DNA of 63,910 bases, filler included, from Stramenopiles sp. TOSAG23-2 (taxonomy: Eukaryota): NCBI GenBank assembly GCA_900128395.1. It is 3 parts of 3 records of this genome, joined end to end, with 100 filler letters (N's around TTAATTAATTAA, not from the genome) between each part and the next. Parts side by side here need not be neighbours in the genome. Positions count along the whole stretch, not along the records: positions 23,460 to 46,770 come from LT649490.1; 2 more parts are not named here. One strand, written 5' to 3'. Numbering within the stretch: the first letter of the stretch is position 1; each line of letters starts with the position of its first letter. The notes under the pieces are model-generated. The model was not told where the DNA came from, searched no databases, and worked only from the letters and a program-made list of their open reading frames with translations. Shown in pieces: positions 3,294 through 50,949 of this stretch. A program made the translations under genes and the position numbers.

Positions 3294-5855
3294 ATGCAGT
3301 CAATATATAATGTACGATTCTGTTTTGGAATGTCACTTTTGTCTTTGTTTTGTCTAGTAATACTTCAATGGCATACTCATAATAGTTATATCTCACTATC
3401 ACGAAAATCATTACAATATGCTTACAGAAATCTGGATGGATTTTTATCTGAATTCGATAATGAAAAACATGATACAATCATTTTAGGAAAAAAACGAAAA
3501 ACAAATATTACAATAAACAAACCAACCTCAACTCAACAATTAAAGTTGTCATCCTCAATAAAATCATTAATTGATACTTTAGAAAAACCAAAAGTAGACA
3601 AGATAAAAACTAGTAATACAAAGTCGTTCAAAAAACTAATTTTGGCTGGATCAATAAAGGCATTATGGCGTCAACTTGAAAATACCCCAAAGCAGGAAGC
3701 ACCATCGAAAAAAGAACCACCGAAGAAAATATCTTCAACAAAACCATCATCTGTAAAAAAAATTGCTGCGAAAATATTTGCGAAAATATTGACGAAAAAG
3801 AAAAATAAGAATAATAATAGTAATAGCAACAAGAAGCAAGAAAAATCAAAATCATCATCAACCTCTACTAACACGAATAATGACAACACAGTGAATGAAA
3901 TAGGAGAAACAAAAAAAAATAACATAAACAATAACGATGATTCAACTACAGTAGAAGATCCACCCGATGAATGCATGTCTGTAGGAAGTACAATGTTGAT
4001 TGAAACAAAAATTTCAACATTAATCATTGTACCAATTCCTGAAGAAGATATAAGAAATGCTGGTAACAATGTGGAGAAGCTTCATAGTGACTTTGCAAAA
4101 CAGTTTGTAAAGCCTTTAAATGCACATGTCTACCATATAATTTTTATATGGAACTTTGCACTTACTAAAATTAATCCAAAGACATTAAAAATTTTAGATA
4201 TGTTGAAACATACTGTCACTTCAATACTACTTAATCCTGACAAATATAAAAATGTGCACATAACATTTTTAACATGTACAGAAAAAGATAAATCAAACCA
4301 TAACACTATGGAAAAAGAAATACGAAACTCGGTACGACCATATTTAAAAATATTTGACTCGTTGAAAAAAAAAATAATTGTCACTTCCGTTCACACAAGA
4401 TTCATGGAGCATAAACTGGGCAATAGTAATATAAATAATTGTGCTAATGTAAAATCATTTACTAAACAACATGGGTGCCATTGTTCATGGGCAAAATCCC
4501 ATAAAAGTTGTATAAACGATAATTCAAATTGTTTCAAAGCATGTTGTTGTAAATATTATGATCCAACAGGATTTGATAGATTGACAAATGGATATCTCAT
4601 ACAACATGAAAAACGTTTTGAACATTTCAACACCATATATGCAATTGGAGGATATAAAATTGGAAAAGATAAAAAAGTAGGCTTACCGTGTTTTACTCAA
4701 ATGCCAAGACAAAAAGAGCAACAATTACCTGAGTTAGTACGTGTGTATAAAAAGAACATAGATGCTGGGCAAATTGATGATGGGAAACATATAAATGGAG
4801 AATCATTTGGCATATGCGATTTAGTTGAAATGCCATTAAGTGTAAATCCATACAAGAAAACAGAGGAGACGATTTCCATCCTTGTTTCGGCAGCGTTTAC
4901 AGGGCATGGCCACCTTGCAGCACCAAAAGCAAGAAAGATGTTAAATACGAAATATTTAGGCCAAAAATCAGGAAGCTTTGGTTTTTTGCCATACTTCACT
5001 TCATCTGAAAACAATTTTCAAGTTGATAAATATGTTTCCTTTAAGAATACAGCATACAAATTATGGAAAAAAGATTCATTATGTTTTACTGGAAGGGATG
5101 CACGCACACGACCGTCGTTGTTGTATGATGTCTCCAAGACAATAAATGATATTGTATCAACAGAAAACGAATTAACATATGAGAAAAATTCATTTAATGC
5201 AGTATACGGTTCGCTATTAACGCCGATGAAGGTAGGAAGCCTGCCGCCATGGGAGTTCGATATGGATTTGGATTTTATAATGGATTTGCCTTTCAGGGAA
5301 TCTTCGCCATCTAAATTACAAAGTAAATGTAGAAAAATATTAACCCTCGTAAAAGATAGAGGTCCAAAAAGTGGATTTCATATTCATGATATTAAATGTG
5401 GAAAAGAAGCTGGTGTTGATTTTAAAAAAAGTAAAGTGAAATGTATTATGAATGTGAATAGAAAAAAAGATAAAGCAATATTTTTCCCACACTGGAATCA
5501 AATATGTGGGGATTTAAAACGTTGTCCTGATTGTTGGGTATTGGATCCTGAAATATGGAAAATTTGCTTAAAACGTGTTCAAGATATAACAAGAAACGGG
5601 AAAAAAATGAAAGGTTATGAACGTAAGGAAGGTTTAAAATTTGAAATAGCATGTATGGCATCTACGCCACACAATATAAAACTAGTAAAAAATGCTCCAA
5701 AAATAGCAATTGCAGACCCAACTGGTTCCGGTGAGACGTTTTTCGTCAAAGTATTTCTTCATCATAATTCAAATGTTTTATCCGAAGAGTTTACATTGCA
5801 AGAATTTGGGAACTGGTTGCCAAGTCCATGGCAATGCCCATGGAAGGAAAAATAA
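3294..5855 (+). CDS. Type II membrane LicD/fukutin-like nucleotidyltransferase-fold protein
   Basis: N-terminal hydrophobic anchor, K/S/N-rich stem, and YGSLLTPMKVGSLPPWEFDMDL, which matches the LicD GTLLG..R....IPWDxDxD motif. Confidence 0.7.
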   Translation: MQSIYNVRFCFGMSLLSLFCLVILQWHTHNSYISLSRKSLQYAYRNLDGFLSEFDNEKHDTIILGKKRKTNITINKPTSTQQLKLSSSIKSLIDTLEKPKVDKIKTSNTKSFKKLILAGSIKALWRQLENTPKQEAPSKKEPPKKISSTKPSSVKKIAAKIFAKILTKKKNKNNNSNSNKKQEKSKSSSTSTNTNNDNTVNEIGETKKNNINNNDDSTTVEDPPDECMSVGSTMLIETKISTLIIVPIPEEDIRNAGNNVEKLHSDFAKQFVKPLNAHVYHIIFIWNFALTKINPKTLKILDMLKHTVTSILLNPDKYKNVHITFLTCTEKDKSNHNTMEKEIRNSVRPYLKIFDSLKKKIIVTSVHTRFMEHKLGNSNINNCANVKSFTKQHGCHCSWAKSHKSCINDNSNCFKACCCKYYDPTGFDRLTNGYLIQHEKRFEHFNTIYAIGGYKIGKDKKVGLPCFTQMPRQKEQQLPELVRVYKKNIDAGQIDDGKHINGESFGICDLVEMPLSVNPYKKTEETISILVSAAFTGHGHLAAPKARKMLNTKYLGQKSGSFGFLPYFTSSENNFQVDKYVSFKNTAYKLWKKDSLCFTGRDARTRPSLLYDVSKTINDIVSTENELTYEKNSFNAVYGSLLTPMKVGSLPPWEFDMDLDFIMDLPFRESSPSKLQSKCRKILTLVKDRGPKSGFHIHDIKCGKEAGVDFKKSKVKCIMNVNRKKDKAIFFPHWNQICGDLKRCPDCWVLDPEIWKICLKRVQDITRNGKKMKGYERKEGLKFEIACMASTPHNIKLVKNAPKIAIADPTGSGETFFVKVFLHHNSNVLSEEFTLQEFGNWLPSPWQCPWKEK

Positions 5856-14666: not shown

Positions 14667-16166
14667 ATGTTGATGAAAACAACTGGTAAAATGTCTGGTC
14701 ATGGCAGTGGAAAAGCTATCAACGGTAGGTGGACAAGAGAGGAACATGAATTGTTTTTAAAAGCATTAAATGAATATGGTAGAGAATGGAAGAAAGTGGC
14801 GAAGAAAATCAAGACTAGATCATCTGCACAAATTCGTAGCCATGCACAGAAATATTTTCAAAAACTATCAAAAGAGAGAAAAGCTGGTTTACACGGCGGT
14901 GCTGCTGCTTTACATGGTTCTCACGTAGTTCTAGATAAAAGTAATAAGAAAAAAGCATCTAATACGGGAGATAAGACTTTGATAAAGAAGAAACGAAAAA
15001 TGAAAGGAAAGAGCTTGAATGCTGCATATTCGAAGAAGCAAAAGCAAAGGCCGGTATCGCCAAACTTTGTATCAAAACCTGTTAATACATATGGAGGAGG
15101 AAGATTTTCACCTGTACAAAAAACACGAGCAAGTCCAAAAGTTATGGATGCTTCTTTGTCCTTACACTCAGCATATGGTGATGCGACTGCTATTATATCA
15201 TCTCCATCGCGAACGTCAACCTCTTCATTCACATCACCTTTCGTGACACGAAACTTTGTACAAACAATAGCAACTAAAAAGAAACTAGTTCAATCATGGG
15301 AGCAGAAACTTCGAACGTTACTAAGTAAACGGAAAAAAGTATCTGGTTTTACAAAAGGCGCTAATTTAGGGATGACGGCCAACACAACAATAAACGTGTT
15401 TCCAACTAGTACAACAGGAGTTGCACCACATGATGATTTAGTCGTGACACCACGTTTATCGCCTTTGAACATACCAGAAAACGAACGTGAAGTATCACGT
15501 ATACGCGAACGTTTAAATCGACGAGATGAGTTAATCAAAGTCGATAAAAAAATTATAGATGTCATTGATTCAGCATGTACTGCACCATGTATTTGTGGAG
15601 AACCAAAATTAATTTTTCATTGTAGAAATCAACAAGAGAAAGAAGTAGGAAATGGTAACAGTTACATATGTTTAACTGTTCGTCAAAAGATGTTGAATAT
15701 ATTTCAACGCTCGTATGAGAAAAATGGGCAATATTCAACACCACAAAGCACGGTTCTTTTAAAAGATTGGAAGAGAATCAATTTAGAAGTTGCTAATGCA
15801 AAAGCGGCAGAGTTAAGTTATCAAAATGCAGAAATGTTATATATGGCCTTATCACCAATTGCACGTGAAAATTTGAGTATATTAGATAATGAAGAATTGT
15901 CAGCTGTGCAAGTTTTAATTGGGAGCATGATGGGTATTCGACCGAGGAAAACGAAAGGTGGTAAAAAGAAGACACAACAACTTTCCATTACAACAACTAC
16001 TACAACAAAAACGACTATTAATTATGATGATGATGAGGAAGAAGATGATGCAAGTGAATCAGAATCGGATGAAGAAGAAGAATCCAGTTCGGAGGAGGAA
16101 GATACAGATGATGATGATGATTCTGAATCTGAATCAGATGATAGTGAAAGTGACGAGGAAGAATAA
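14667..16166 (+). CDS. SHAQKYF-class single-repeat MYB transcription factor with an acidic tail
   Basis: GRWTREEHELFLKALNEYGREWKKVA...TRSSAQIRSHAQKYF. Confidence 0.93.
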   Translation: MLMKTTGKMSGHGSGKAINGRWTREEHELFLKALNEYGREWKKVAKKIKTRSSAQIRSHAQKYFQKLSKERKAGLHGGAAALHGSHVVLDKSNKKKASNTGDKTLIKKKRKMKGKSLNAAYSKKQKQRPVSPNFVSKPVNTYGGGRFSPVQKTRASPKVMDASLSLHSAYGDATAIISSPSRTSTSSFTSPFVTRNFVQTIATKKKLVQSWEQKLRTLLSKRKKVSGFTKGANLGMTANTTINVFPTSTTGVAPHDDLVVTPRLSPLNIPENEREVSRIRERLNRRDELIKVDKKIIDVIDSACTAPCICGEPKLIFHCRNQQEKEVGNGNSYICLTVRQKMLNIFQRSYEKNGQYSTPQSTVLLKDWKRINLEVANAKAAELSYQNAEMLYMALSPIARENLSILDNEELSAVQVLIGSMMGIRPRKTKGGKKKTQQLSITTTTTTKTTINYDDDEEEDDASESESDEEEESSSEEEDTDDDDDSESESDDSESDEEE

Positions 16167-23359: not shown

Positions 23360-23459
23360 NNNNNNNNNNNNNNNNNNNNNNNNNNNNNNNNNNNNNNNNN
23401 NNNTTAATTAATTAANNNNNNNNNNNNNNNNNNNNNNNNNNNNNNNNNNNNNNNNNNNN
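23360..23459. other. Artificial contig linker
   Basis: 44 N + TTAATTAATTAA (stops in all six frames) + 44 N. Confidence 0.98.
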
Positions 23460-25589
23460 CATTTCATTTATAATTTCCTCAACTTTATCGAAATCATCAT
23501 TCTTTCCGTACAGATTAATAAGTGTGCTGTATGTAATAACATTAGGTTTAATATTATTTGATTTCATTTCATTTAAGTATTGTTCAACTTTATCAAAATA
23601 ACCATTTTTACCAAAGATACTAATCAGTGTGTTATATATAAAAATATTAGGTTTAATATTATTTGATTTATCATCAATTTTATCAAAATCGCCATTCTTT
23701 CCAAATACAGAAATTAATGTATTGTGTATAACACCATTCGGTTCAATATTATTTAATTTCATTTCATTCAAATACTCCTCAACTTTATCAAGGTCATTTT
23801 TCTTTCCGTACGCATTAATAAGTGTGCTGTATGTGATAATATTAAGTTCAATATTATTTAATTTCATTTCATTTAAACATTCATCAACTTTATCAAAATC
23901 GCCATTCTTTCCATTTGCAGTTTAATTATATAACATACATATTGGTAGGCCAAGTTATAATAAACATTTCATTTCATTTACGAATTCATCAACTTTATCT
24001 AGGCCACCATTCTTTCCACACGCATCAATTAAAGTGTTGTATGTACGAAGAGTCGGCTCAACATTATTTGATTTCATTTCTTTATAATATTTTTCAACTT
24101 TATTGAACTTCTTCCTCTTCACACATGCGTTAATAAGCATGTTATAGTGAAAAACTTTTGGCTTGATATTTTTTAATTTCATTTCCTTGAAACATTTTTC
24201 AATTTTTTTCACATTGCCTATCTTTGCGTATGCTTTAATCAACGCACTGTATGTACTTTTATTTGGTTTAATATTATTTGATAACATTTCATCTATGTAT
24301 TTCTTAACTGTCTGTATGTCACCATTCTTTCCGTAGAAACTAATCAGTGTGGTATATGTAACAACATCAGGTTTAATATTATTTGATTTCATTTCATTTA
24401 TGTATTCATTAACTTTATCGTAGTCACCATTTTTACCATAGATACTAATCAGTGTGTTATATATAAAAATATTTCCAAATTATAATAAACTAAACATCTC
24501 ATCGACATATTCATCAACTTTAATGTATTCATCATTCTTAGCACATGCATTAATAAGTATACTATACATTGAATTGCTAGGTTTAATATACTTTATTTTC
24601 ATTTCCTTAAAAACATTTTCAATTCCGTTTAAATCGCACTTTTTACCATACATATACATATTAATTAGTATATGGTATGTATAAAAGTCCGGCTCAATGC
24701 CATTCAATTTCATTTCGTTCATATATTCATCAACTTTATCGAAATCACCATTCTTTTGATGAATATTGATTAGTGTGCTGTAAAAATTAGCACGAAGTTC
24801 AATATTATTTGATCTCATTTCATTGATATACTCATCAACTTTATCGAACTCACCATTCTTTCCATATAGATTAATAAGTGTATTGTACATAACACCATTC
24901 GGTTCAATATTATTTGATTTCATTTCGTTGAAAACTGCTTCAACTTTATTGAAATCGCCATGCTTTCCGTACAGATTAATAAGTGTGCTGTATGTAATAA
25001 CATCAGGTTTAATATTATTTGATTTCATTTCATTTAAGTATTGTTCAACTTTAGCAAAATTACCATTCTTTCCATACATATTAATCAGTATGTTATATGT
25101 AAAAATATCAGGTTCAATGTTATTAAGTTTCATTTCATTAAAATATAGTTCAGCATCAGCTATTCTATTCATGCTACTACAACGTTGTAGGAGAATCTTA
25201 TATGTTATAAGAGATATAGGAACTCCATTTTTTTTCATATCTTCAAAAGCTACTGTAAAGTCCTTGTATTTTTTTATGCGTCTAAGTTCCTTATCCTCTT
25301 TTGATACCACATGTTCTTTATCTGTTACAGTATTTGATGAACCAAAAAAATCAAATACAGCACCAGCTTTTTCAGAAAATGTAGTAGAGTATAATCGTTT
25401 ACTATCATGCATTTCATCAACACCAAGTTTATTACTCCCCACCGTAAATAAAAATGGTATTTTGTTATCATAGCGGTGGTTATTAAAGCACTGTTTTTGC
25501 ATTTGATGCATACGATATTCACCTCGAACAATCCTTTTTATTTGCATCCCACCACGTCGTGGCATCATTTTCATTGCAATCCTCATCAT
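23460..25589 (-). CDS. P-class PPR protein, about 17 repeats, mitochondrial-type presequence, 3' truncated by the contig end
   Basis: 35-aa repeats (YNTLINxYGKNGDFDKVxEYxNEMKSNNIKPD). The three listed ORFs are in one frame; all interrupting stops lie inside the two in-place complemented segments. Confidence 0.9.
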
Positions 25590-25858
25590 ATTTACTTCTT
25601 TCCTTTCTATTGTACCAACCAATGTATAAAACGGACCAAAGACGCGCTCCAACAACACACACACACACAACACACACCTTTCATACATAATTTTTCTATA
25701 TTACATAATTTTTCCACGTGAAAATCGAAGTAATGTTTGAAAAGAAGAGCAGCTGGCAAGTACCAACGAACAGTACTATTTACCTGTTGTTGGTTAGCAT
25801 TGACATAGCATTAAAATCACAAATTTCAGAGTTTCATAAGTGGTTGAACCGTTTTAAG

Positions 25859-27080
25859 TTACCAAACTGACTATTTAGAGTGAATAGTAACAATAATATC
25901 CGATAATCAGTAATTATTGACTATATCCAGGATATTATTCAATGATTATTTTTAGATGATTAAAATTCCTGAAATGTTATTGATTTTTTTAAGGCAAAAT
26001 CCATCGCCATCACCTCATGACAAAAGCAGCATCAATATTATTGGATGTGAACACACACATTTGTATCTAAAAAATAATACATATCTCCTAATGGTGCGAA
26101 ATGAGCAATCATCTGGCAATAACATATCAATTTATCTTAGGCCGAACAAACAAGATATAATTAAGTTACCAAACTGACTATTTAGAGTGAATAGTAACAA
26201 TAATATCCGATAATAAATAATTATTGACTATATCTAGGAGATTATTCAATGATTATTTTTAGATGAAAAATTCCTGAAATGTTATTGATTTAAGGCAAAT
26301 TTGTATCTAAAAAATAATACATATCTCCTAATGGTGCGAAATGAGCAATCATCTGGCAATAACATATCAATTTATCTTAGGCCGAACAAACAAGATATAA
26401 GACGATTGAAATATATAAAATATCAACAACAAAAATATATATAAGTGTTTTGTAGATCGTACCTTTATACAATTTGAAACAAAAACCCACTTGAATTGGA
26501 AGAAAAAAGATATATAAATATACTTTTGGAAGATACGTATTAATAACAAATAAGCAACAAAACAATTTGGGAAAATAATAACAAATAATAATAACAAAAT
26601 AATATCATGAAATCTGATCGGGCCAGTAACCTCCTTCCTTTAGTATTGCTCCTTGCAATTATAACAACAACTGTAGTAGTTGAAAATGTATACGCACAAT
26701 CAGATAAAAAACAAACTGCACCATCCGAACGTGTAATGATAAATAATGAATTGGAACAAATAAGTGTTTTGTAGATCGTACCTTTATACAATTTGAAACA
26801 AAAACCCACTTGAATTGTAAGAAAAAAGATATATTAAATATACTTTTGGAAGAGACGTATTAATAACAAATAAGCACAAAAACATTTTTTTGGGAAAATA
26901 ATAACAAATAATAATAACAAAATAATACCATGAAATCTGATCGAACCATTAACATCCTCCCTTTAGTATTGCTCCTTGCAATTATAACAACAACTGTAGT
27001 AGTTGAAAATATATATGCACAATCAGATGAAAAACAAACTGCACCATCCGAACGTGTAATGATAAATAATGAATTGGAAC
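25859..27080. repeat. Nested local duplications (about 300-320 bp periods)
   Basis: 25859-26000 recurs near 26166, 26060-26160 recurs near 26300, and 26441-26760 recurs at 26761-27080 with several substitutions. Confidence 0.85.
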
Positions 27081-27874
27081 AAATACCTGAATTATTTACA
27101 TATACAAAATGGGAAGATAATAAAAGGAAAGGAAACCGAGGGGAAATAAATTTGAAAAACAAACTGCACCATCCGAACGTGTAATGATAAATAATGAATT
27201 GGAACAAATACCTGAATTATTTACATATACAAAATGGGAAGATAATAGCCCAACTGTTTTAATTGCAGCAGCTAATGCACTTGCTGATTACCATGCCCTC
27301 GCTGTGCCACATTTAGCAGATGATAAAGATTATACCTCACAAAGTAAATATTTGACTGATGCCATGAATACTATTATTGGACAAATGGATAAATTCAATC
27401 TAAAACGAGATAAAAAGTCGGTGCAAATCATTGTAGATTTTAAAGATATTATCAGTAAATTATATTCAAAATTAAATGAATGGCCAACAACTATGGTATG
27501 GAGCTCTGCTGAAAGGGTAAAGGAAGACGGACCAGCAAGAATTCCGGAGGATAAGCTTTTAGTACATCGAGGATTTGACATTGCAAACTTCTTTTTAAGT
27601 GAAGTTATAGGTGATAGTTTAAACTTTGAAGTACAACAAGCAGTTAAATTGATGAAACGAACGAAGGAAAAACAGGAAAGTACTTTATTATGACATTGCA
27701 AACTTCTTTTTAAGTGAAGTTATAGGTGATAGTTTAAACTTTGAAGTACAACAAGCAGTTAAATTGATGAAACGAACGAAGGAAAAACAGGAAAGTACTT
27801 TATTAAATTTAGCACATAAACAAAGAGCAGTGGAGCTATTTGCTTCGGAATCAGAACCAAAATCGGAGTTGTAA
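26930..27874 (+). CDS. Secretory-pathway protein of unknown function ending in KSEL, broken by two local duplications
   Basis: Signal peptide ILPLVLLLAIITTTVVV. Removing the duplicated inserts near 27121-27240 and 27692-27804 gives one ORF ending ...ESEPKSEL*. Confidence 0.7.
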
Positions 27875-28063
27875 TAAAAGGAAAGGAAACCGAGGGGAAA
27901 TAAATTTGACCTGAACCTTTGTAATTAATGCTGTGTCACTAAATACAAATTTGTTGTGCAGTGTTGGTGTGTGTGTGTGTGTGTGTGTGTGCACGTTTTT
28001 TAAAAAAATTAATATCATATATAAATTATATATATTCTGAGTTTTAAAGAGACTCAGGATGTT

Positions 28064-28315
28064 GTGAGCTTTGTTGGGCGCGAAATACAACTAACGAAGG
28101 ACTATACAACAGGTAATGCAACATTTAAACAAGGAAGTAGAGGGACAGTTATTGAGGTGCCCTCCCGTAAGGATGGAAAATTGAAAGTTAAATTGGATAA
28201 CGACAATGAGAAAACATTTAGATTGATTAAAGAATGTGATTTACAACTTTATGAAGGAGGACCTCTTTCATCTAGCTCTGAATCACAGACAGCGGAAACA
28301 TCTTTTGAATACTAA
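28064..28315 (+). CDS. Possible terminal exon or gene fragment with an SH3/KOW-like beta barrel
   Basis: VGREIQLTKDY...FKQGSRGTVIEV...LKVKLD pattern; no ATG start. Confidence 0.35.
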   Translation: MSFVGREIQLTKDYTTGNATFKQGSRGTVIEVPSRKDGKLKVKLDNDNEKTFRLIKECDLQLYEGGPLSSSSESQTAETSFEY

Positions 28316-28742
28316 ATAATTTTTACCAAAATTTATAAATCATTTTCGATTTGAGATGTTAATAAACGGGAGTAAAAGAATTTTATATAACATATGAGTA
28401 AGAGAAAAACACATATATATAATATGATAATATCCTTTTTTACCTCATCGGTAATTTTCTGTTACAGGAAATTACTAGGTATTGACACATTTTTATGAGA
28501 TTAGACTATCATATTAATAATTTAATAATTTGGGCCCAAGTCACTGTATTTCTTTTGAGAGTAGGAATTGTCATGAGTAGGGAAAATTAAAAAATTAAAA
28601 TTTACGTGTGTGTTAAATACATTTTACGAAGTAATTATTAAAAAATCCTTTATCTCTCTGATTTTTACGAGTAATTTACGCGCGTGTAAAAACACTTATT
28701 TTTATATTTTTCGTAATATTTCATATTTTTTCTCTCTCGCGC

Positions 28743-30462
28743 TCAAAAAATATCCTTTATCAATGATATGAATGATGATCGCTTATCAACTTTTCTATCT
28801 TTTGGTTTTTTTTTTTTCAATTCTTTTTTTTCTCTTTGTGTTGGTGTTTTGACTTCTTCCAAATTAGTGATGTATTGTCGATGTTTTTTATGGATTGTTT
28901 CTAATTTAGAAATATCTGAATCTTTTGCTTCGATTTGTTTTTCTAATGACTTAATATATTCATTTTTATGGTTATAATTTTCTTTATAACCGATATAGTT
29001 TAATGTGTTCTTGATAAACTGGTCCTGTTCGACGCCGTTCTTCTTCATCTCTTTTAAGTAGTTTTTTACCTTTTTGAAACTCTTGTTCTTACCGTAGGAA
29101 ACAAGTAATGTATTGTATATATGCGAATTTAGACTTATGCCATTCTTCTTCATCTCAGAAACATACATCTCCACCTCTTCGAATTGTTTTTTTTTTCCAA
29201 GTACATAAAGTAATGAATTGTAATGATACACGTCTGGTTCAAGATTCTTTGCTTCCTTCATTTCATTGAAATACTTTTTCGTGTCTTCCAAATTTCCACT
29301 TTTAGCACAACGGTTAAGGACAATACCGTATGTTTTGGTGGTAATGGAAATGTCTCTCTTTTTCATGTCTTCAAAAGCTAATATAATATTCTTATATCTT
29401 CTTATCTTCCTTAGTATCATATCGTTATCTGATGACGTAACTTCTGTGCAAGTCTGGAAATTAAAATTTCCACCCATTTTATTTCCCTTGCGCAATTTAT
29501 CTCGCGTTAATGTATTATATGTAACATGATTTGGTTTAATACCATTTAATTTCATTTCCTGTAAACATTCATCAACTTTAGCAAAATCGCCATGCTTTCC
29601 ATACAGATTAACTAGTGTGTTGTGTGTGACAATATTCTGTTTCACATTATTTGATTTCATTTCACTTAAATATTCATCAATTTTAGCAAAATTACCATTC
29701 TTTCCATATGCAGAAATTAATATATTGTATGTATAACAATCCGGTTCAATATTATTTGATTTCATTTCATTCAAATACTTCTCAACTTTATTGATTTCAT
29801 TACTCCTTGAAAATCTATTAATTAATATATTATATGTAATAACATTAGGTTTAATTTTCTTAAGTTTCATTTCATTAAAATATAGGTCTACTTTTATTGA
29901 TTTCATTACTCCTTGAAAATCTATTAATTAATATATTATATGTAATAACATTAGGTTTAATTTTCTTAAGTTTCATTTCATTAAAATATAGGTCTACTTC
30001 GTCTACTTTACTCATTCTACCGCAACGGTGAAGGAGAATATTGTATGTTACGACAGTAAGAGGTATTCCATTTTTTTTCATATCTTCAAATGCTAATTTA
30101 AATTTGTTGTAATTATTTATCGCCATGAGTTTTTTATCTTCCTCTGATGCACCAGTAAGTAGTCCTATATTCTTATCACTTGGGCTATTTAAATTATTTT
30201 TATTGTTTAAATCATTTGATATACCAAAAACATCAAGCACAGTACCAATTTTTTCAGAAAATGTAGAGTACAATCGTTTACTATTATATTGTTCATTTAC
30301 ATCACTTCCCAGTATCAATAATTCTTGTTGTTTTCTACCTAGCCCAGCATGATGGTTGTATAAAAATTGTTTTTGTATTTGACTTATATGATTATATCGG
30401 GGCATCTGTTTCATTTGCCTTCCACCATGTCGTGGCATCATTTTCATCGCTATCCTCATCAT
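28743..30462 (-). CDS. Second PPR protein, paralogue of 23460-25589, with a C-terminal coiled coil
   Basis: Same N-terminus (MMRIAMKMMPR, SKRLYST) and PPR repeats. A 106-bp duplication (29787-29892 / 29893-29998) explains the frameshift between the two ORFs. Confidence 0.88.
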
Positions 30463-41688: not shown

Positions 41689-44600
41689 ATGTTGAAAAAA
41701 ATGAAAAAAAATAAGCCATTGTTGGTTGAAATATTATTGACATTATCAGCTGCTTTTCTATATTATGGTGTAGAAAGTGCAAAAATGATACGTACAGTTG
41801 CAGCAAATGGACAAGGTATTGATATGCGTGGATGTGGTGTTGAAGGAAATATTTACTGTAATACTACACAATTTGCTATATTTGAATCAAATGATGGTGA
41901 TGAAATTGTATTATTAAAAGGTATTCATACGTGTGATACTAATATTACAACCGTAGTATATGGCGATAGTAATGGTGGTATAAGATTTGTACAACGTGAT
42001 GGAAACACTGCTATTAGTGGAATATATATACATGGTGCTAACAATACTAGAAATGATAATGTTATATATGATTGTAAACATACAAAACGCGCATTTGCAT
42101 TTATGAGTGAAAATGAAGGTTTAAATACTGCATTGAGTAATTTTAGTATTTCTAATGGGAGTGCTCATCGGGGAGGTGGTGTATATATTCAATCACAAGC
42201 TCAACCTATATTTAATCATGTCATTTGGATTCGTAATGTAGCACAAGGTGGTGGTGGTGGTGTTTTTATCGTAAATTCTAATACCAATCCAACATTTAAT
42301 AATTGTACATTTCAAGAAAATAAAGCACAATATAGTAAATATGGTGGAGGTGGTGTATATATTGAATTCGATGCTCAACCTATATTTAATCATGTCATTT
42401 GGATTCGTAATGTAGCACAAGGTTATGGTGGTGGTGTTTTTATCACAGATCCTAATACCAAACCAACATTTAATAATTGTACATTTCAAGAAAATAAAGC
42501 ACAATATAGTAAATATGGTGGAGGTGGTGTATATATTGAATTCGATGCTCAACCTATATTTAATCATGTCATTTGGATTCGTAATGTAGCACAAGGTCGT
42601 GGTGGTGGTGTTTTTATCTCAAGTTCTAATACCAAACCAACATTTAATAATTGTACTATCGCAAGTTCTAATACCAAACCAACATTTAATAATTGTACAT
42701 TTCAAGAAAATGAAGCACAATATAGTAAATATGGTGGAGGTGGTGGTGTATATATTGAATTCGATGCTCAACCTATATTTAATCATGTCATTTGGATTCG
42801 TAATGTAGCACAAGGTTATGGTGGTGGTGTTTTTATCTCAAGTTCTAATACCAAACCAACATTTAATAATTGTACATCTCAAGAAAATGAAGCACAATAT
42901 AGTAAATATGGTGGAGGTGGAGTATATATTGAATTCGATGCTCAACCTATATTTAATCATGTCATTTGGATTCGTAATGTAGCACAAGGTTATGGTGGTG
43001 GTGTTTATATCAGAGATTCTAATACCAAACCAACATTTAATAATTGTACATTTCAAGAAAATGAAGCACCAAATAGTAATTATGGTGGAGGTGGTGTATA
43101 TATTCAATCACAAGCTCAACCTATATTTAATCATGTCATTTGGATTCGTAATGTAGCACAAGGTGGTGGTGGTGGTGTTTTTATCATAAGTTCTAATACC
43201 AAACCAACATTTAATAATTGTACATTTCAAGAAAATAAAGCACAATATAGTAAATATGGTGGAGGTGGAGTATATATTGAATTCGATGCTCAACCTATAT
43301 TTAATCATGTCATTTGGATTCGTAATGTAGCACAAGGTGGTGGTGGTGGTGTTTTTATCATAAGTTCTAATACCAAACCAACATTTAATAATTGTACATT
43401 TCAAGAAAATAAAGCATTAAATAGTAATTATGGTGGAGGTGGTGTATATATTAAATACCAAGCTCAACCTATATTTAATCATGTTATTTGGATTCGTAAT
43501 GTAGCACAAGGTCGTGGTGGTGGTGTTTTTGTCACAAGTTTTAATACCAAACCAACATTTAATAATTGTACATTTCAAGAAAATGAAGCATCAAATAGTA
43601 ATTATGGTGGAGGTGGTGTATATATTGAATTACAAGCTCAACCTATATTTAATCATGTCATTTGGATTCGTAATGTAGCACAAGGTCGTGGTGGGGGTGT
43701 TTTTGTCACAAGTTTTAATACCAAACCAACATTTAATAATTGTACATCTCAAGAAAATGAAGCACAATATAGTAAATATGGTGGAGGTGGAGTATATATT
43801 GAATTCGATGCTCAACCTATATTTAATCATGTCATTTGGATTCGTAATGTAGCACAAGGTCGTGGTGGTGGTGTTTTTATCATAAATTTTAATACCAAAC
43901 CAACATTTAATTATTGTACATTTCAAGAAAATGAAGCACCAAATAGTAATTATGGTGGAGGTGGTGTATATATTCAATCACAAGCTCAACCTATATTTAA
44001 TCATGTCATTTGGATTCGTAATGTAGCGGAAGGCCGTGGTGGTGGTGTTTTTATCATAAATTTTAATACCAAACCAACATTTAATAATTGTACATCTCAA
44101 GAAAATGAAGCACAATATAGTAAATATGGTGGAGGTGGAGTATATATTGAATTCGATGCTCAACCTATATTTAATCATGTCATTTGGATTCGTAATGTAG
44201 CACAAGTTGTTGGTGGTGGTGTTCTTATCACAGATTCGAATACCAAACCAACATTTAATAATTGTACATTTCAAGAAAATGAAGCACAATATAGTAAATA
44301 TGGTGGAGGTGGAGTATATATTGAATTCGATGCTCAACCTATATTTAATCATGTCATTTGGATTCGTAATGTAGCACAAGGCCGTGGTGGTGGTGTTTTT
44401 ATCATAAATTTTAATACCAAACCAACATTTAATAATTGTACATCTCAAGAAAATGAAGCACAATATAGTAAATATGGTGGAGGTGGAGTATATATTGAAT
44501 TCGATGCTCAACCTATATTTAATCATGTCATTTGGATTCGTAATGTAGCACAAGGCGGTGGTGGTGGTGTTTTTATCATAAGTTCTAATACCAAACCAAC

Positions 44601-46770
44601 ATTTAATAATTGTACATTTCAAGAAAATGAAGCATCAAATAGTGATTATGGTGGAGGTGGTGTATATATTCAATCACAAGCTCAACCTATATTTAATCAT
44701 GTCATTTGGATTCGTAATGTAGCACAAGGTGCTGGTGGTGGTGTTTATATCACAAGTCCTATTACCAAACCAACATTTAATTATTGTACATTTCAAAACA
44801 ATACTGCTATCAAAGGTGGTGGCGCGATACGACTTCCATTTTATCCTGACTCACCACCCAGCACCGGTGAATGCGGAACATCACTCAACTTTACAAGTAA
44901 AACAATATTTTCCAATAACAAGGCAAATTACAACGCTGGTAATTCAATTTATATTGATATCATACAACCACCATCTGTTCAAACACCTATGAAAGTTTAC
45001 TTTGCACCAACATGTTTTCATAATAAATTTATCAGCACCGGTGAATGCGGAACATCACTCAACTTTACAAGTAAAACAATATTTTCCAATAACAAGGCAA
45101 ATTACATCGCTGGCAATTCAATTTATATTGATATCATACAACCACCATCTGTTCAAACACCTATGAAAGTTTACTTTGCACCAACATGTTTTCATAATAA
45201 AATGGTGGAGGTGGTATATATATTGAATCACAAGCTCAACCTATATTTAATCATGTCATTTGGATTCGTAATGTAGCACAAGGTCGTGGTGGTGGTGTTT
45301 TTATCTCAAGTTCTAATACCAAACCAACATTTAATAATTGTACATTTCAAAACAATACTGCTGTCAAAGGTGGTGGCGCGATACGACTTCCATTTTATCC
45401 TGGCCAACCATTCAGCACCGGTGAATGTGGTACACAAATCACCTTTACAAGCAAAACAATATTTGCCAATAACAAGGCAAATTACAACGCTGGTAATTCA
45501 ATTTATATTGATATCATACAACCACCATCTGTTCAAACACCTATGAAAGTTTACTTTGCACCAACATGTTTTCATAATAAATTTATTACATATATAAATC
45601 AAAACGATAACAGGAAGCAACACGCAAATATCAATTACAACATTGCTACATCTCCATATAAACTTACCATCAGTAAACCAGGCACATTAATACCAACTTC
45701 CATATCGCCAGGAATACAATTAAAAGGTAGTTTACAAGTACAAGATGTATTTGGTAGAAGTTGTACTGAAATTCAAGATAATGATTACACCGCATCAGTG
45801 CGTTTGCAAAACGACAAACAAATTAAGTTTCAAGGTTCGACGGTATTTCTAATTCGTAAATCTGGTATAGTAAATATTTCATATTTAAATGAATTAAAAA
45901 TTAGGAGCGCACCATCCAACTTAATAGGTAAACAAATATCATTACAATTTACTCAAGAAAAATTACAATCTGTAAATACAACAATAACACTTCGTCAATG
46001 CAGAAAAGGATTTCAATCCTCAACAATTAATGATGGAGTATTAACATGTAACCCATGTCCAGCACAACAATATAATGTTATTTCTGGTGGAATATGTCAC
46101 GATTGCCCAACAATTGGTGCAATTTGTATGGGACAGGATGATGTCTATGTACAGCCAGGATATTACGGACATGTTGGACATATTAATACACATTATGGTG
46201 AAATATCAGTATTTGAATGTAGTAGTGGTCTATGTTGTCCATATTTTAATGGTTCTTCCCTTGAACCGTATGATATAAATGGAATAGGGTGTCGTGTTGG
46301 TAGTGGAAAAGATTGTACAACAAATCGTGATCCATTAATCCCTTTATGCGGTTCTTGCATCTCCGGCTATAGTGAAGTTTTAGGCAGTTCTATATGTCGT
46401 AAATGTACCTACATAAATTGGTTTTGGTTTATCATTCCTTTTCCAATTGGTATGATATCCATTATATATTTATTACGTAAAACCTATCTTGCAGCAACAA
46501 AAAATATTTTATTCACATTAATATTTAAGAATTTAATGTTTTTTTACCAAGTTGTTGGTTTAGTATTAAGTCCATCGCAATTAGTAAAACGTGTTAGTGG
46601 CCCTTTATTGATGCTTTTCAGTTTTAATGTTGCAACAAATGAAGCAGATCATTCAGATAGTAATAGTAATGATAAAAAAATAACGACTGAAAATCCATTC
46701 AGTTGTTTAATACCAAATTTAACACCAATTGGTAAATTAGCATTTAATATATATCCAATGGGTATATTAA
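41689..46770 (+). CDS. Polymorphic-membrane-protein-like (GG[A/G]V/I, FxxN) beta-helix surface protein with a Cys-rich stalk and multi-pass C-terminus; truncated
   Basis: Signal peptide, 15 x 58-aa repeats, then CxxC-rich CNPCP...C...QPGYYG...LCGSC..GY, then TM segments (FKNLMFFYQV). Frames are broken by duplicated blocks at 45030-45585. Confidence 0.85.
42170..44800 (+). repeat. 174-bp coding tandem repeat, 15 copies
   Basis: TTTAATCATGT recurs at 42211, 42385, 42559, 42778 and then every 174 bp to 44692. Confidence 0.97.
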
Positions 46771-46870
46771 NNNNNNNNNNNNNNNNNNNNNNNNNNNNNN
46801 NNNNNNNNNNNNNNTTAATTAATTAANNNNNNNNNNNNNNNNNNNNNNNNNNNNNNNNNNNNNNNNNNNN
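46771..46870. other. Artificial contig linker
   Basis: 44 N + TTAATTAATTAA + 44 N. Confidence 0.98.
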
Positions 46871-46924
46871 AGAAAGAGTGGGAAAGATGGTGGGCTGTAT
46901 GTATAAATTAAAAAAAAACAAAAT

Positions 46925-49900
46925 TTCGATTTGATTTGGCCATACCATCACTTTATTTCTATCTCCACCACCAGTAGTTTTTATCGAATCAGTTTTTCTT
47001 TTCTTCAATGCTCCAGCATCGAAATCATGCATTGGCATTTTCATGTTACACGCGCCTACTTTAAATGTACTTGGTTCAAATGCATTTGGATTCCATATTA
47101 TACCGATGGTATGACCTTTATATGAATCACGGAAGAAAAAAGCTAAGTTACCAAATGATTCACGTAATTTATTGATATACTTTGTAAACGGGTCGAAATC
47201 AAAGATTAGACGGTCTAATGGATCTTTAGTTGATAAATTTCGATATGTTTCAACACGAAAACGTTGACCAAACTTACTTGTTGACCCTTTTAATTCATTT
47301 ATATGTTTGTGTTTTCTTCTTTTATTTGTATTCTTGTTTGATGGCATGAAAAGGGGATATTGTCGGCAAGGTATATTTTCTGCTAGTAGATATATAGTTG
47401 CATCATAGTCTTTTCTAGATGGCGGTTTAAATGCATTTATGGCATTGTCCATCATATGGTTCTTTTTAATCATATTTACCGTTTCTTTTGCCAATGCAAC
47501 GAAGCGTTTTAAATACACGCTAGGCATGGCATTATTTTCCATCCACGACGGGACCCATTTAAGTTCTCGATCATACGATGTTACGACATAAAATAAAGTT
47601 TTATCTTCGCGAGTATGTTTCCTTTGTTGCGTTAATATTTCTTGTTTATGTTCGAATATTTCTTCGATCTCCCCTATGTCGTTAGGGGAAATGGAATCAT
47701 CAATGTCTACAATCAATGGTTCAAATTCCCATTCGTGATTTGCTACTAATTCTAAAAAACGTAAAAACCCAGTTAAAAAGGAGGATGGCGGCTCATGTGG
47801 TCTACAAGATGGATCCACGAATAGGCTAGCTACTATAATTTCAATCATCTCCTCTGACAATATATCCGATAACATTTTTGCATGAAACCAATGTTTCACT
47901 AATCGAACAACTTCCCCATAGACATTAAAGCGCAATTGCAAGGAATGAATTAAGTTGCTATGGATAATTTTTAAATCTGTGTTTAAACGCAAATTTCTTA
48001 ATCGTTTCTCCGCATCAATTTGTGTTACCATGACCCTATTATCAAAAATAAACTTTCTTTTGCCTCCTATTATTCTTGGTATCTTTGACGATGCAATCGC
48101 CAACAGTTCCTTCTCATGGTCGCAGATAATACTTAAACGAAATGCATAGCCAGCATATGCAATATCCAATGCACCATCCCGTGCTAGACTTTTGATGCTA
48201 AAGGATTTACGCAGCGATGCGCCAAGACTACATAAAAATGCAGTTTTTACTTTTTGTATTGCAAACAAATCATCTGGCCATCTACCACTGGATTCTAATG
48301 AAACCATCACTTCGTGTGGATGAATAATTTTGGATGCGTATCCATTATCTTTTAACCCATCTTCAACATTGCCTAATAAGGGGTGGAACGCTGGAGGATG
48401 TTCCCTGGTGTAGCGCCCACCAGAACTAATGAATTGCAACGCAGTGACACGCAGCGGTAATGTTTCTAAACTTGTGACTTTGATGGCCAAATCATCTAAT
48501 GTTTGCCTTAAACGTTTAAACAAATCATCCGACGTAGATGTTGTTTTAAACACGGGCTGTAAAAATTGATTTAATTGATTAGAGGATATTTTCATTCGCT
48601 TCAGTTGCATATCGTCTATTGCATATTTTAAATGTCTATTGAAAATATATTTAATAATTTGAGATATTACAGAGTACTGATTCCCATATTTATTTTGCCA
48701 CAATGTCGCCTCAACAATAGAACCATCTTTAAAGCGCCTTAATTCAGATTTTTCACCCCAGAATTTTCGAAATGTCGCTGCCATTTCCTTCTCCTCAGCA
48801 TTTGGACCACGATCCAGGGTACGTGCAAAAGTAGATTTTTCCAATATAATACCAACTATAATATTGCGTAACGGCAGCTGTTTGCGCCGTAACTGCATGC
48901 AATTCCATGAATTTTTGCTCCTTTTTTCCCACATCACTCGTATTAAACGAGCGCGGTCAGTCAACGCTCGAGACAACACATCATGCATATGNNNNNNNNN
49001 NNNNNNNNNNNNNNNNNNNNNNNNNNNNNNNNNNNNNNNNNNNNNNNNNNNNNNNNNNNNNNNNNNNNNNNNNNNNNNNCATGCATATTTTGCAATGTTT
49101 CTTGCTTCCAATATTTGCGTTTGTTCCTATTACGGCTTTCGTTGTTGTTGTTACCAACGTTGCCATCAGCATCGCCTTCATCTACGTTGTCTATGCTCGG
49201 TAAAATGCCATATACATCATATTTACTCCAAAGTTTCAAATTCGACTGACCTAAAAACAATGGATCAAATGAATATGTTGATGAACCATGATTGTTTTTT
49301 AAAAAACGATGAGATAATTTAGCTTGATACCGCAGTTCGTTATAAGCATCGAGGGAGACCCTCGATGCTAAATTCAACAGACATTGACTGTCTAGCATAA
49401 CTACATCATGAGATTTTAAATGTGTATTAATGCTTTGTTTGTAATTCTTATTCTTTTCATTATTATTATTATTATTTAAAATCAACACATGTCCAATTTT
49501 TCCAAAGTCACGCTTTGCTATATATACAATAACTTTCTTAAATATTTGTTTTGCAGAAGCATTGTTATTTATTTCCTTTTTATTTAATAAATCCGATGCC
49601 AATATCGAAATTAAAAATCCATTAAAAGTATCTGGTGCATGTAACATTTCGCGTCGTTGTAACCAAACTTTGAGCAACTGGCATGCGCCAATAAAACCTT
49701 TGCATTGCAAAGCTGTCTGGTGTAAACTTTGTAGATGGTCTCGCATATAGATATCTTCTAATATAGAACAATTATAACGTGGAGTTGGCACTTTTTTTAA
49801 TTCTTGTTGTTCATCATCATCATCCTCGCCATTGCTAGTCAAGGTTTCTTTGTGCATTCTTAAATTACCCTTTAGCGGATTTAATTTTTGAACTTCAAAC

Positions 49901-50949
49901 ACATCCTTACTAATGATTGGATAGATACGAATAGAAAATTTCTTTGCTAATTTTGATGTTTGACCAGATGCTTTCTTGCGTTTCTTTGTTTTTCCTTTCG
50001 TATCCTTCTCATAACTACTATTATCATCATCAGCTGCTAATTTAAATACTAATATTGGCTTGCTAAGATCATTTCCTTCTCTCCAACCTTGAATTTCGAT
50101 ATCTGAAAAAGAACTTTCTTTTGAAAGTTCATTAGCGATAGCTGATAAATACAACCGGCGTTTGTCATGATACCGATAATCTAAAACATCTTTTGGAACA
50201 AAACAACTGTTTGGAATTTGCACCGTAATATCAACATTACAATTCGATTTGATAATTGAATGTAACAAATAACTACCAACAAGATCAATTCGAGACGGTT
50301 TTTCAAAACGTAGAGATATTGGCTTTGTGTGATGTTTCCATAATGGATGTAAACCTTTACATTTTTGAAAAACTGGAGAATTTTCATTCATATCAAACGG
50401 TATCATTCCGTTTAATATTTTTTTTAACGTAAATAGACACTTTTCAAGATCTTTTAATGCCTTGTAATCAATACTAACGTGTTTCAATAATGATATAATT
50501 TTCAGTTCCATCATATTTGATTTTACTCTATTCGATTTACTTTTATTAAAACCATCTGTTTGTCTTAATTGTTGCATTTCAGATGTTGTAGGCAATGAAA
50601 AACGCGGATCATAAGAGGAATGCTGGGAATTTTTTCCTTTTCGGTTGCTTGTTTCTGTTGTTTTTGCCCTTCCTGTTGTCGTCGTAGATGCCACTACTGC
50701 TACAGTAGTATCTAAATAATAACCAAGACCATTATCATCGTTTTTAAATACATAACCTTTCTTTGCTCCAACAAATTTTGTGGATGGAAAAAATTCGACA
50801 TCGTAATTCGAAGAATTTTCAGCTTGAATAGATGACGATGAATCTAAAGTATTTTCTAAATCCGAATCTGATTCACTGCTAGAATCAGAAGAGCTATTTT
50901 GTACCTTTTTTGTGTTACCACGTGCTGCACGTCGTCTATTTCTTGGCAT
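46925..50949 (-). CDS. NOL6: Nucleolar protein 6 / Utp22 (Nrap family); spans an N gap, last codons missing
   Basis: VGSYLL, KDVLDYRYHDKRRLYL, PTPRYN, LLKVWLQRR, FRKFWGEKSELRRFKDGSIVE and ESSGRWPDDL. Confidence 0.95.

Follow-up and report, generated by a model that had tools for sequence, protein, structure and literature searches.

Here, we show that two short stretches of a pentatricopeptide repeat (PPR) gene, 45 nt at positions 23921-23965 and 21 nt at 24474-24494, stand in the sequence record as the plain complement of normal coding sequence, complemented base by base without being reversed. Both are almost certainly errors of the record and no part of the organism's DNA. At this locus the organism's PPR gene is ordinary and intact, and the stretches are not a real biological feature. 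Matches to related repeats within the same stretch of DNA define the normal form of both, and contigs assembled from four public sequencing runs carry that normal form.

The window, by which we mean the whole 63,910-nt stretch of DNA analysed, is a draft scaffold in which at least three contigs have been artificially joined. Its two joints are identical unstranded 100-nt linkers of the form N44-TTAATTAATTAA-N44, at 23360-23459 and 46771-46870, with stops in all six frames. Because the joins are artificial, gene order across the linkers is no evidence of linkage. The DNA is eukaryotic and nuclear, with genes for adaptin, Nrap, Myb, ankyrin and NIPA proteins. Position 23460 is the start of the contig that carries the PPR gene, and from there it is 461 and 1014 nt to the two complemented stretches.

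The PPR gene occupies 23460-25688 on the minus strand and comprises 743 codons, its 3′ end missing: the start codon, an ATG, is at 25688, and the frame is cut by the contig end at 23460. ORFs, Pfam matches and a 105-nt period (units of 35 residues) delimit it. PPR_2 is found on all three ORF pieces, with E-values of 4e-55, 9e-53 and 3e-38 (184, 177 and 130 bits, for a cut-off of 30), and these tandem 35-residue motifs above the Pfam cut-offs make it a member of the PPR genes. A paralogous PPR gene lies nearby. Its ORF at 28743-29906 (PPR_2, E 2e-56, 188 bits) holds the normal form of the 45-nt stretch at 29714-29758, minus strand.

When the 45-nt stretch, to which no strand is assigned, is complemented base by base without reversal, it is identical to paralogue positions 29714-29758 at 44 of 45 letters, whereas in its written form it shares none (0/45). 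The flanking sequence agrees with the paralogue directly: on the left, 6-10 letters match in every block of 10 across 120 nt, and on the right, 9 of 10 match in the first whole block. A blastn comparison of the complemented window with the window itself returns the pair 23921-23965 / 29714-29758 at E = 1.2e-15 and, besides this stretch and the one at 24474-24494, only low-complexity noise. Translated as written on the minus strand, the 45-nt stretch reads KCLL*LGLPICMLYN*TA, with false in-frame stops at 23957 and 23924. Complemented in silico, it reads KSNNIEPDGYTYNILISA, identical to the paralogue at 17 of 18 residues in unchanged register, as against 2 of 18 for the written form. Since the stretch is not a mirror palindrome, plain complement and reverse complement are distinct operations at 23921-23965. 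An earlier note on this DNA had described the stretch as PPR coding sequence complemented in place between matching flanks, a swap that removes both in-frame stops and restores the peptide in register. That description is correct; after the swap one stop is left in the frame, outside the stretch. We thus confirm that the 45-nt stretch is normal PPR coding sequence in plain complement.

The second stretch, 24474-24494, lies in the same gene and was absent from the earlier note. It too has no strand assigned, and it was recognised from sister repeats, blastn and contigs. Once complemented, it is identical at all 21 letters to four sister repeats (at 23544, 23649, 24369 and 25005; E 0.002 each). 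As written, it reads FSLL*FG on the minus strand, where the sister repeats read KSNNIKP, and it contributes a false stop at 24482. Its edges are exact: the preceding letter agrees directly with the sister repeat at 23649, and the following letter agrees directly with three of the four. What all five copies in the window have in common is exactly this 21-mer.

The minus-strand frame from 25688 to 23460 contains three stops (24482, 23957 and 23924), all three of them within the two stretches. One stop remains when only the 45-nt stretch is complemented, two when only the 21-nt stretch is, and none when both are; with both stretches reversed in place, or reverse-complemented in place, three stops remain. 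It is only because of the two complemented stretches that the gene looks split into three ORFs. The regained open frame is nonetheless weak evidence by itself, because complementing arbitrary stretches of the mended frame often keeps it open (516 of 2183 stretches of 45 nt, 1132 of 2207 stretches of 21 nt). It is the paralogue matches, more than the open frame, that carry the weight.

Homologues were also sought. With the 169-residue piece between the two stretches as query, a search confined to longer proteins gave 128 matches, for the most part PPR proteins of plants (24-43% identity); P0019, the nearest homologue, is 77% identical over 58% of the query. Among the 128 matches there was no orthologue reading through the complemented stretches. 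An exact look-up of three ORF products, with the intact paralogue as control, found 0 of 3 in the protein collection, a result that says little since the control was absent as well.

Sequencing runs provide a second line of evidence, which comes from outside the record. When public runs were searched with 23465-29000, 24 were listed, of which 20 contain part of that interval (12 studies; best word share 0.63). Runs labelled marine or seawater metagenome are among those with window sequence, and the RNA runs X15-X20 have word shares of only 0.07-0.14. Four DNA runs from four studies (X1, X4, X6 and X10) were chosen for a contig test, in which their contigs were placed on 23465-25800 at 90% likeness. 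The earlier note had proposed looking for both versions across the junctions, and that comparison, carried out here on Logan contigs, in 4/4 runs gives the normal form on at least one side of the 45-nt stretch. The written form occurs in 0/4, with no instance of either complemented stretch among the listed contig pieces of X1, X4, X6 and X10; Logan contigs lose rare variants and are better evidence of presence than of absence. The note's view that a pipeline error is the most likely reading accordingly gains support from contigs of four studies.

At the 45-nt stretch, two runs cross the entire segment. In both X4 and X10, one bridging contig accounts for the full depth over 23922-23965 (9634.4 of 9634.4 and 7.04 of 7.04, respectively), and the two bridging contigs agree in all eight of their gap positions between 23922 and 23965. 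Compared with the normal form, the edit script of the bridging contig gives 16 mismatches, the very number of other letters reported for X4; the count rises to 34 for the written form and to 30 for the reverse complement. All four inserted letters of the script agree with the normal form, and the kinds of the 16 changes are compatible with the tally for X4. X1 and X6 have zero placed depth within 23921-23965, which we do not count as evidence. Their contigs begin to align at 23966, and the 17 loose letters in front (CGGTTCAATATTATTTG) equal window positions 23949-23965 after complementing; on the other side an X1 contig continues past 23920 with AAATTAATA, the normal form.

For the 21-nt stretch, position 24495 is the exact starting point of the pieces listed for X1, X4 and X6 alike. 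In X4 and X6, the 26-27 letters ahead of 24495 are placed on 23643-23669. This apparent joint from 23669 to 24495 arises because the normal form of 24468-24494 is identical to 23643-23669 at 27 of 27 letters; the written form agrees at 6 of 27. The X1 contig has 27 letters ahead of 24495 that do not fit the window. Among the pieces listed there is no contig spanning 24474-24494 in the written form, and it is precisely at this stretch that three runs break off. Cover in X10 is zero over 24401-24790 and hence at the 21-nt stretch, which again is not counted as evidence.

Run X4 deserves separate comment. Over 24495-25623, all six of its listed records show 0 other letters relative to the window, and its bridging contig (record 17) shows 0 other letters outside the 45-nt stretch. 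As X4 is otherwise letter-identical to the window, its difference at the stretches is not strain divergence. X4 may be the source of the record or the same strain. It is, however, an imperfect copy of the record's source, since it differs from the window at 25054-25057 and within 25594-25800. At the former site three extra letters are present in X4, X10 and part of X6, X1 being like the window; over the latter, 10 letters and 4 gaps distinguish X4 from the window, X1 again being like the window. These differences are natural variation between strains or gene copies, and we rejected both sites as candidates for a third complemented stretch in favour of variation among runs. If X4 is set aside, three studies still support the normal form.

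The same comparisons turned up other irregularities of the locus, which we record for completeness. Two letters at 25732 are missing from X4 and X6, with X1 and X10 like the window, and the window as a whole is a mosaic relative to X1, X4, X6 and X10. Within the PPR gene, the unit at 23640-23700 is about six residues short (DKIDDKSNNIKPN compared with DKV.EY.NEMKSNN in other units), and TRF reports a 90-nt period there. Over 23651-24388 the X10 contig has 753 letters to the window's 738 (+15). The short unit may be a small assembly collapse or a genuine short repeat. The paralogous gene contains a tandem array at 29715-29999 (2.7 copies, 90% identity) with a period of 106 nt instead of the usual 105 nt, and it consists of two overlapping minus-strand ORFs in different frames (28743-29906 and 29875-30462); this split is a frameshift, either genuine or an assembly error. 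The spacer between the two PPR genes holds a perfect 115-nt x 2 tandem duplication at 27576-27805 (100% identity) and a 323-nt x 2 duplication at 26441-27085 (94%). In a draft assembly, a perfect tandem duplication may be an artefact.

Elsewhere in the window, a scan for stop clusters with at least 100 open codons on either side found five places, two of which are the complemented stretches. The other three, 15290-15292, 5018-5020 and 43978-43980 on the minus strand, were rejected as non-coding-looking shadow frames. No further complemented stretch in the window emerged from the paralogue and stop-cluster scans, which are blind to unique and non-coding sequence. A 26-nt segment at 16074-16099, in the Myb-domain ORF at 14667-16166, matches its own reverse complement under the exchange A<>C/G<>T (blastn E 2e-6); this lies in purine-rich sequence encoding acidic residues and is probably a chance match in low complexity. 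An ORF of 1195 residues at 41689-45276 has right-handed beta-helix repeats (Pfam Beta_helix, E 5e-38) and long tandem DNA repeats, and its antisense frame is a long repeated shadow ORF. Finally, 88 N's at 48992-49079 interrupt the gene for Nrap, the nucleolar RNA-associated protein. Nrap domains 1-2 (49080-50949) and 3-6 (46871-48988) flank it on the minus strand, making this a true within-scaffold gap.

How might the complemented stretches have arisen? Their content, their exact edges and their absence from the contigs of four runs are direct observations, and since they are absent from the runs, the fault would have arisen between the reads and the record. We infer that a software or handling step made them. 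At that step, two short pieces of a highly repetitive PPR gene, close to the end of its contig, would have been written as their plain complement, which amounts to the opposite strand written backwards (3′ to 5′), with length and register retained exactly. The outcome is three false stops and the conversion of a single long PPR frame into three ORFs. The earlier note named two candidate mechanisms, a reverse-strand gap fill that was reversed without being complemented and a colour-space decoding shift, and either may apply.

We give about an even chance to a slip of orientation, in which a piece from the opposite strand was reversed without being complemented, or complemented without being reversed, before it entered the consensus. 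Such a piece could be a gap fill, a graph node or a read from the reverse strand. A reverse-strand read that is only reversed yields the plain complement in place with its length unchanged, as observed. Both stretches fall on the core of the PPR unit, its most repeated part and the kind of place that assemblers and gap closers must patch, and both lie within about 1 kb of the contig end; it is these repeat cores near the contig end that lead us to rate a slip of orientation the most likely among the artefact versions. De Bruijn word sizes are odd, and so are both lengths (21 and 45), which may hint at the same kind of step. On the other hand, no specific faulty program was found, and the association with repeat cores may partly reflect detection by way of paralogues. 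A literature search for errors of assembly in which sequence is reversed but not complemented, or similar, yielded no relevant paper; those listed dealt with synthetic enhancer constructs.

It is also possible, though we consider it doubtful, that the original contig was correct and the sequence was altered after assembly, in the editing or handling of the deposited or distributed version. Consistent with this, no public copy for comparison was found by pattern scans, by the exact protein look-up or by the homologue search. The junction pattern of the written form gave 0 hits in metagenome_contigs, and the pattern of the unchanged right flank was absent (0 hits) from all three collections scanned, metagenome_contigs, genome_contigs and viral_contigs. 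Speaking slightly against alteration after assembly, two events of unequal length that both strike a single gene's repeat core, close to where its contig ends, are better suited to assembler trouble, although the reliance on paralogues for detection makes this a weak argument.

An unlikely variant of the artefact invokes colour-space (two-base) encoding, two miscalled colours bracketing a stretch that is then wrongly decoded. Its appeal is that a sequence and its plain complement have one colour string in common. PMC4569514 states that one colour string corresponds to four base sequences, pairs the example ACTAA with TGATT, its plain complement, and notes that a single misread colour ruins the subsequent translation. 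The other two colour-preserving exchanges, A<>C/G<>T and A<>G/C<>T, should leave traces as well, yet in the window they gave 1 and 0 hits, with no paralogue match, and the sole hit was a low-complexity self match. If the three types were equally likely, the chance that both of two stretches would be of the complement type is about 1 in 9. The entries for X1, X4, X6 and X10 give no library type and so lend the colour-space variant no support. Single-pair exchanges, run as controls, gave only self-matches in low-complexity sequence in the window.

Far less probable than any of these is a biological origin. We know of no replication, repair or recombination process that yields a same-direction complement. 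Inversion and template switching produce the reverse complement, since the two strands are antiparallel, and the same antiparallel arrangement dictates the reverse complement for any cut-and-rejoin event. That 45 and 21 bases each changed to their pairing partner by independent mutation is not credible. A same-direction complement truly present in the source molecules, through an unfamiliar process in the cell or during in-vitro amplification, is therefore very improbable in our estimation. It would call for two events, 45 and 21 simultaneous changes, within 550 nt, both destroying the frame, and it runs against the finding of the written form in 0/4 runs and the normal form in 4/4, including X4, which is letter-identical around both stretches. 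In its favour, a rare or sample-specific variant could escape Logan contigs; we nevertheless see hardly any chance that the source cell or sample really carried both stretches and that the four runs simply represent other samples or drop a rare variant. An exchange of this type has, moreover, been claimed in public databases by one author (PMC4942731). An ordinary in-place inversion or short template-switch mutation, although these are known routes for swapping a short stretch with opposite-strand sequence, has next to no chance and is refuted: the 45-nt stretch matches the paralogue at 44 of 45 letters as the unreversed complement, whereas the reverse complement in place keeps three stops and agrees less well with the contig edit script (30 mismatches, compared with 16 for the plain complement).

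The preferred reading, an error of the record, carries a warning about quality. The record holds at least two stretches that are invisible to aligners as an inversion and that introduce three false stops, and an intact PPR gene is thereby made to resemble either a pseudogene or a set of three small genes. Should the fault be systematic, more such stretches are possible in the same assembly or in assemblies from the same pipeline; in unique sequence, no paralogue would reveal them. It may be worthwhile to scan for blocks with zero identity to the reads that turn identical on complementing, a search that would detect such stretches.

Comparison with known systems helps to place these stretches. 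Like the products of inversion or template switching, they are short replacements derived from the opposite strand between unchanged flanks; there, however, the replacement is the reverse complement, and here it is the unreversed complement. They also resemble colour-space mistranslation (PMC4569514): the plain complement is among the three colour-preserving exchanges and hence one of three wrong decodings, the length is kept and the ends are abrupt, the difference being that the window yielded neither of the two remaining wrong decodings. The third system is the 'swinger' DNA and RNA of H. Seligmann, for which a systematic exchange A<->T + C<->G is claimed (PMC4942731); this is the sole published claim we found of such an exchange in real molecules, and the text itself states that database entries have been called swinger-transformed only by the paper's own author. 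The resemblance is in the letters, since the written stretches are normal sequence after A<->T + C<->G, set beside untransformed sequence in the layout that its author calls 'chimeric', and the exchange accounts for 44/45 and 21/21 positions in the record only. In the sequenced molecules it appears in 0/4 runs, with the normal form at the 45-nt stretch in 4/4. While the swinger claim concerns molecules made by polymerases, the contigs of four runs here carry the untransformed form.
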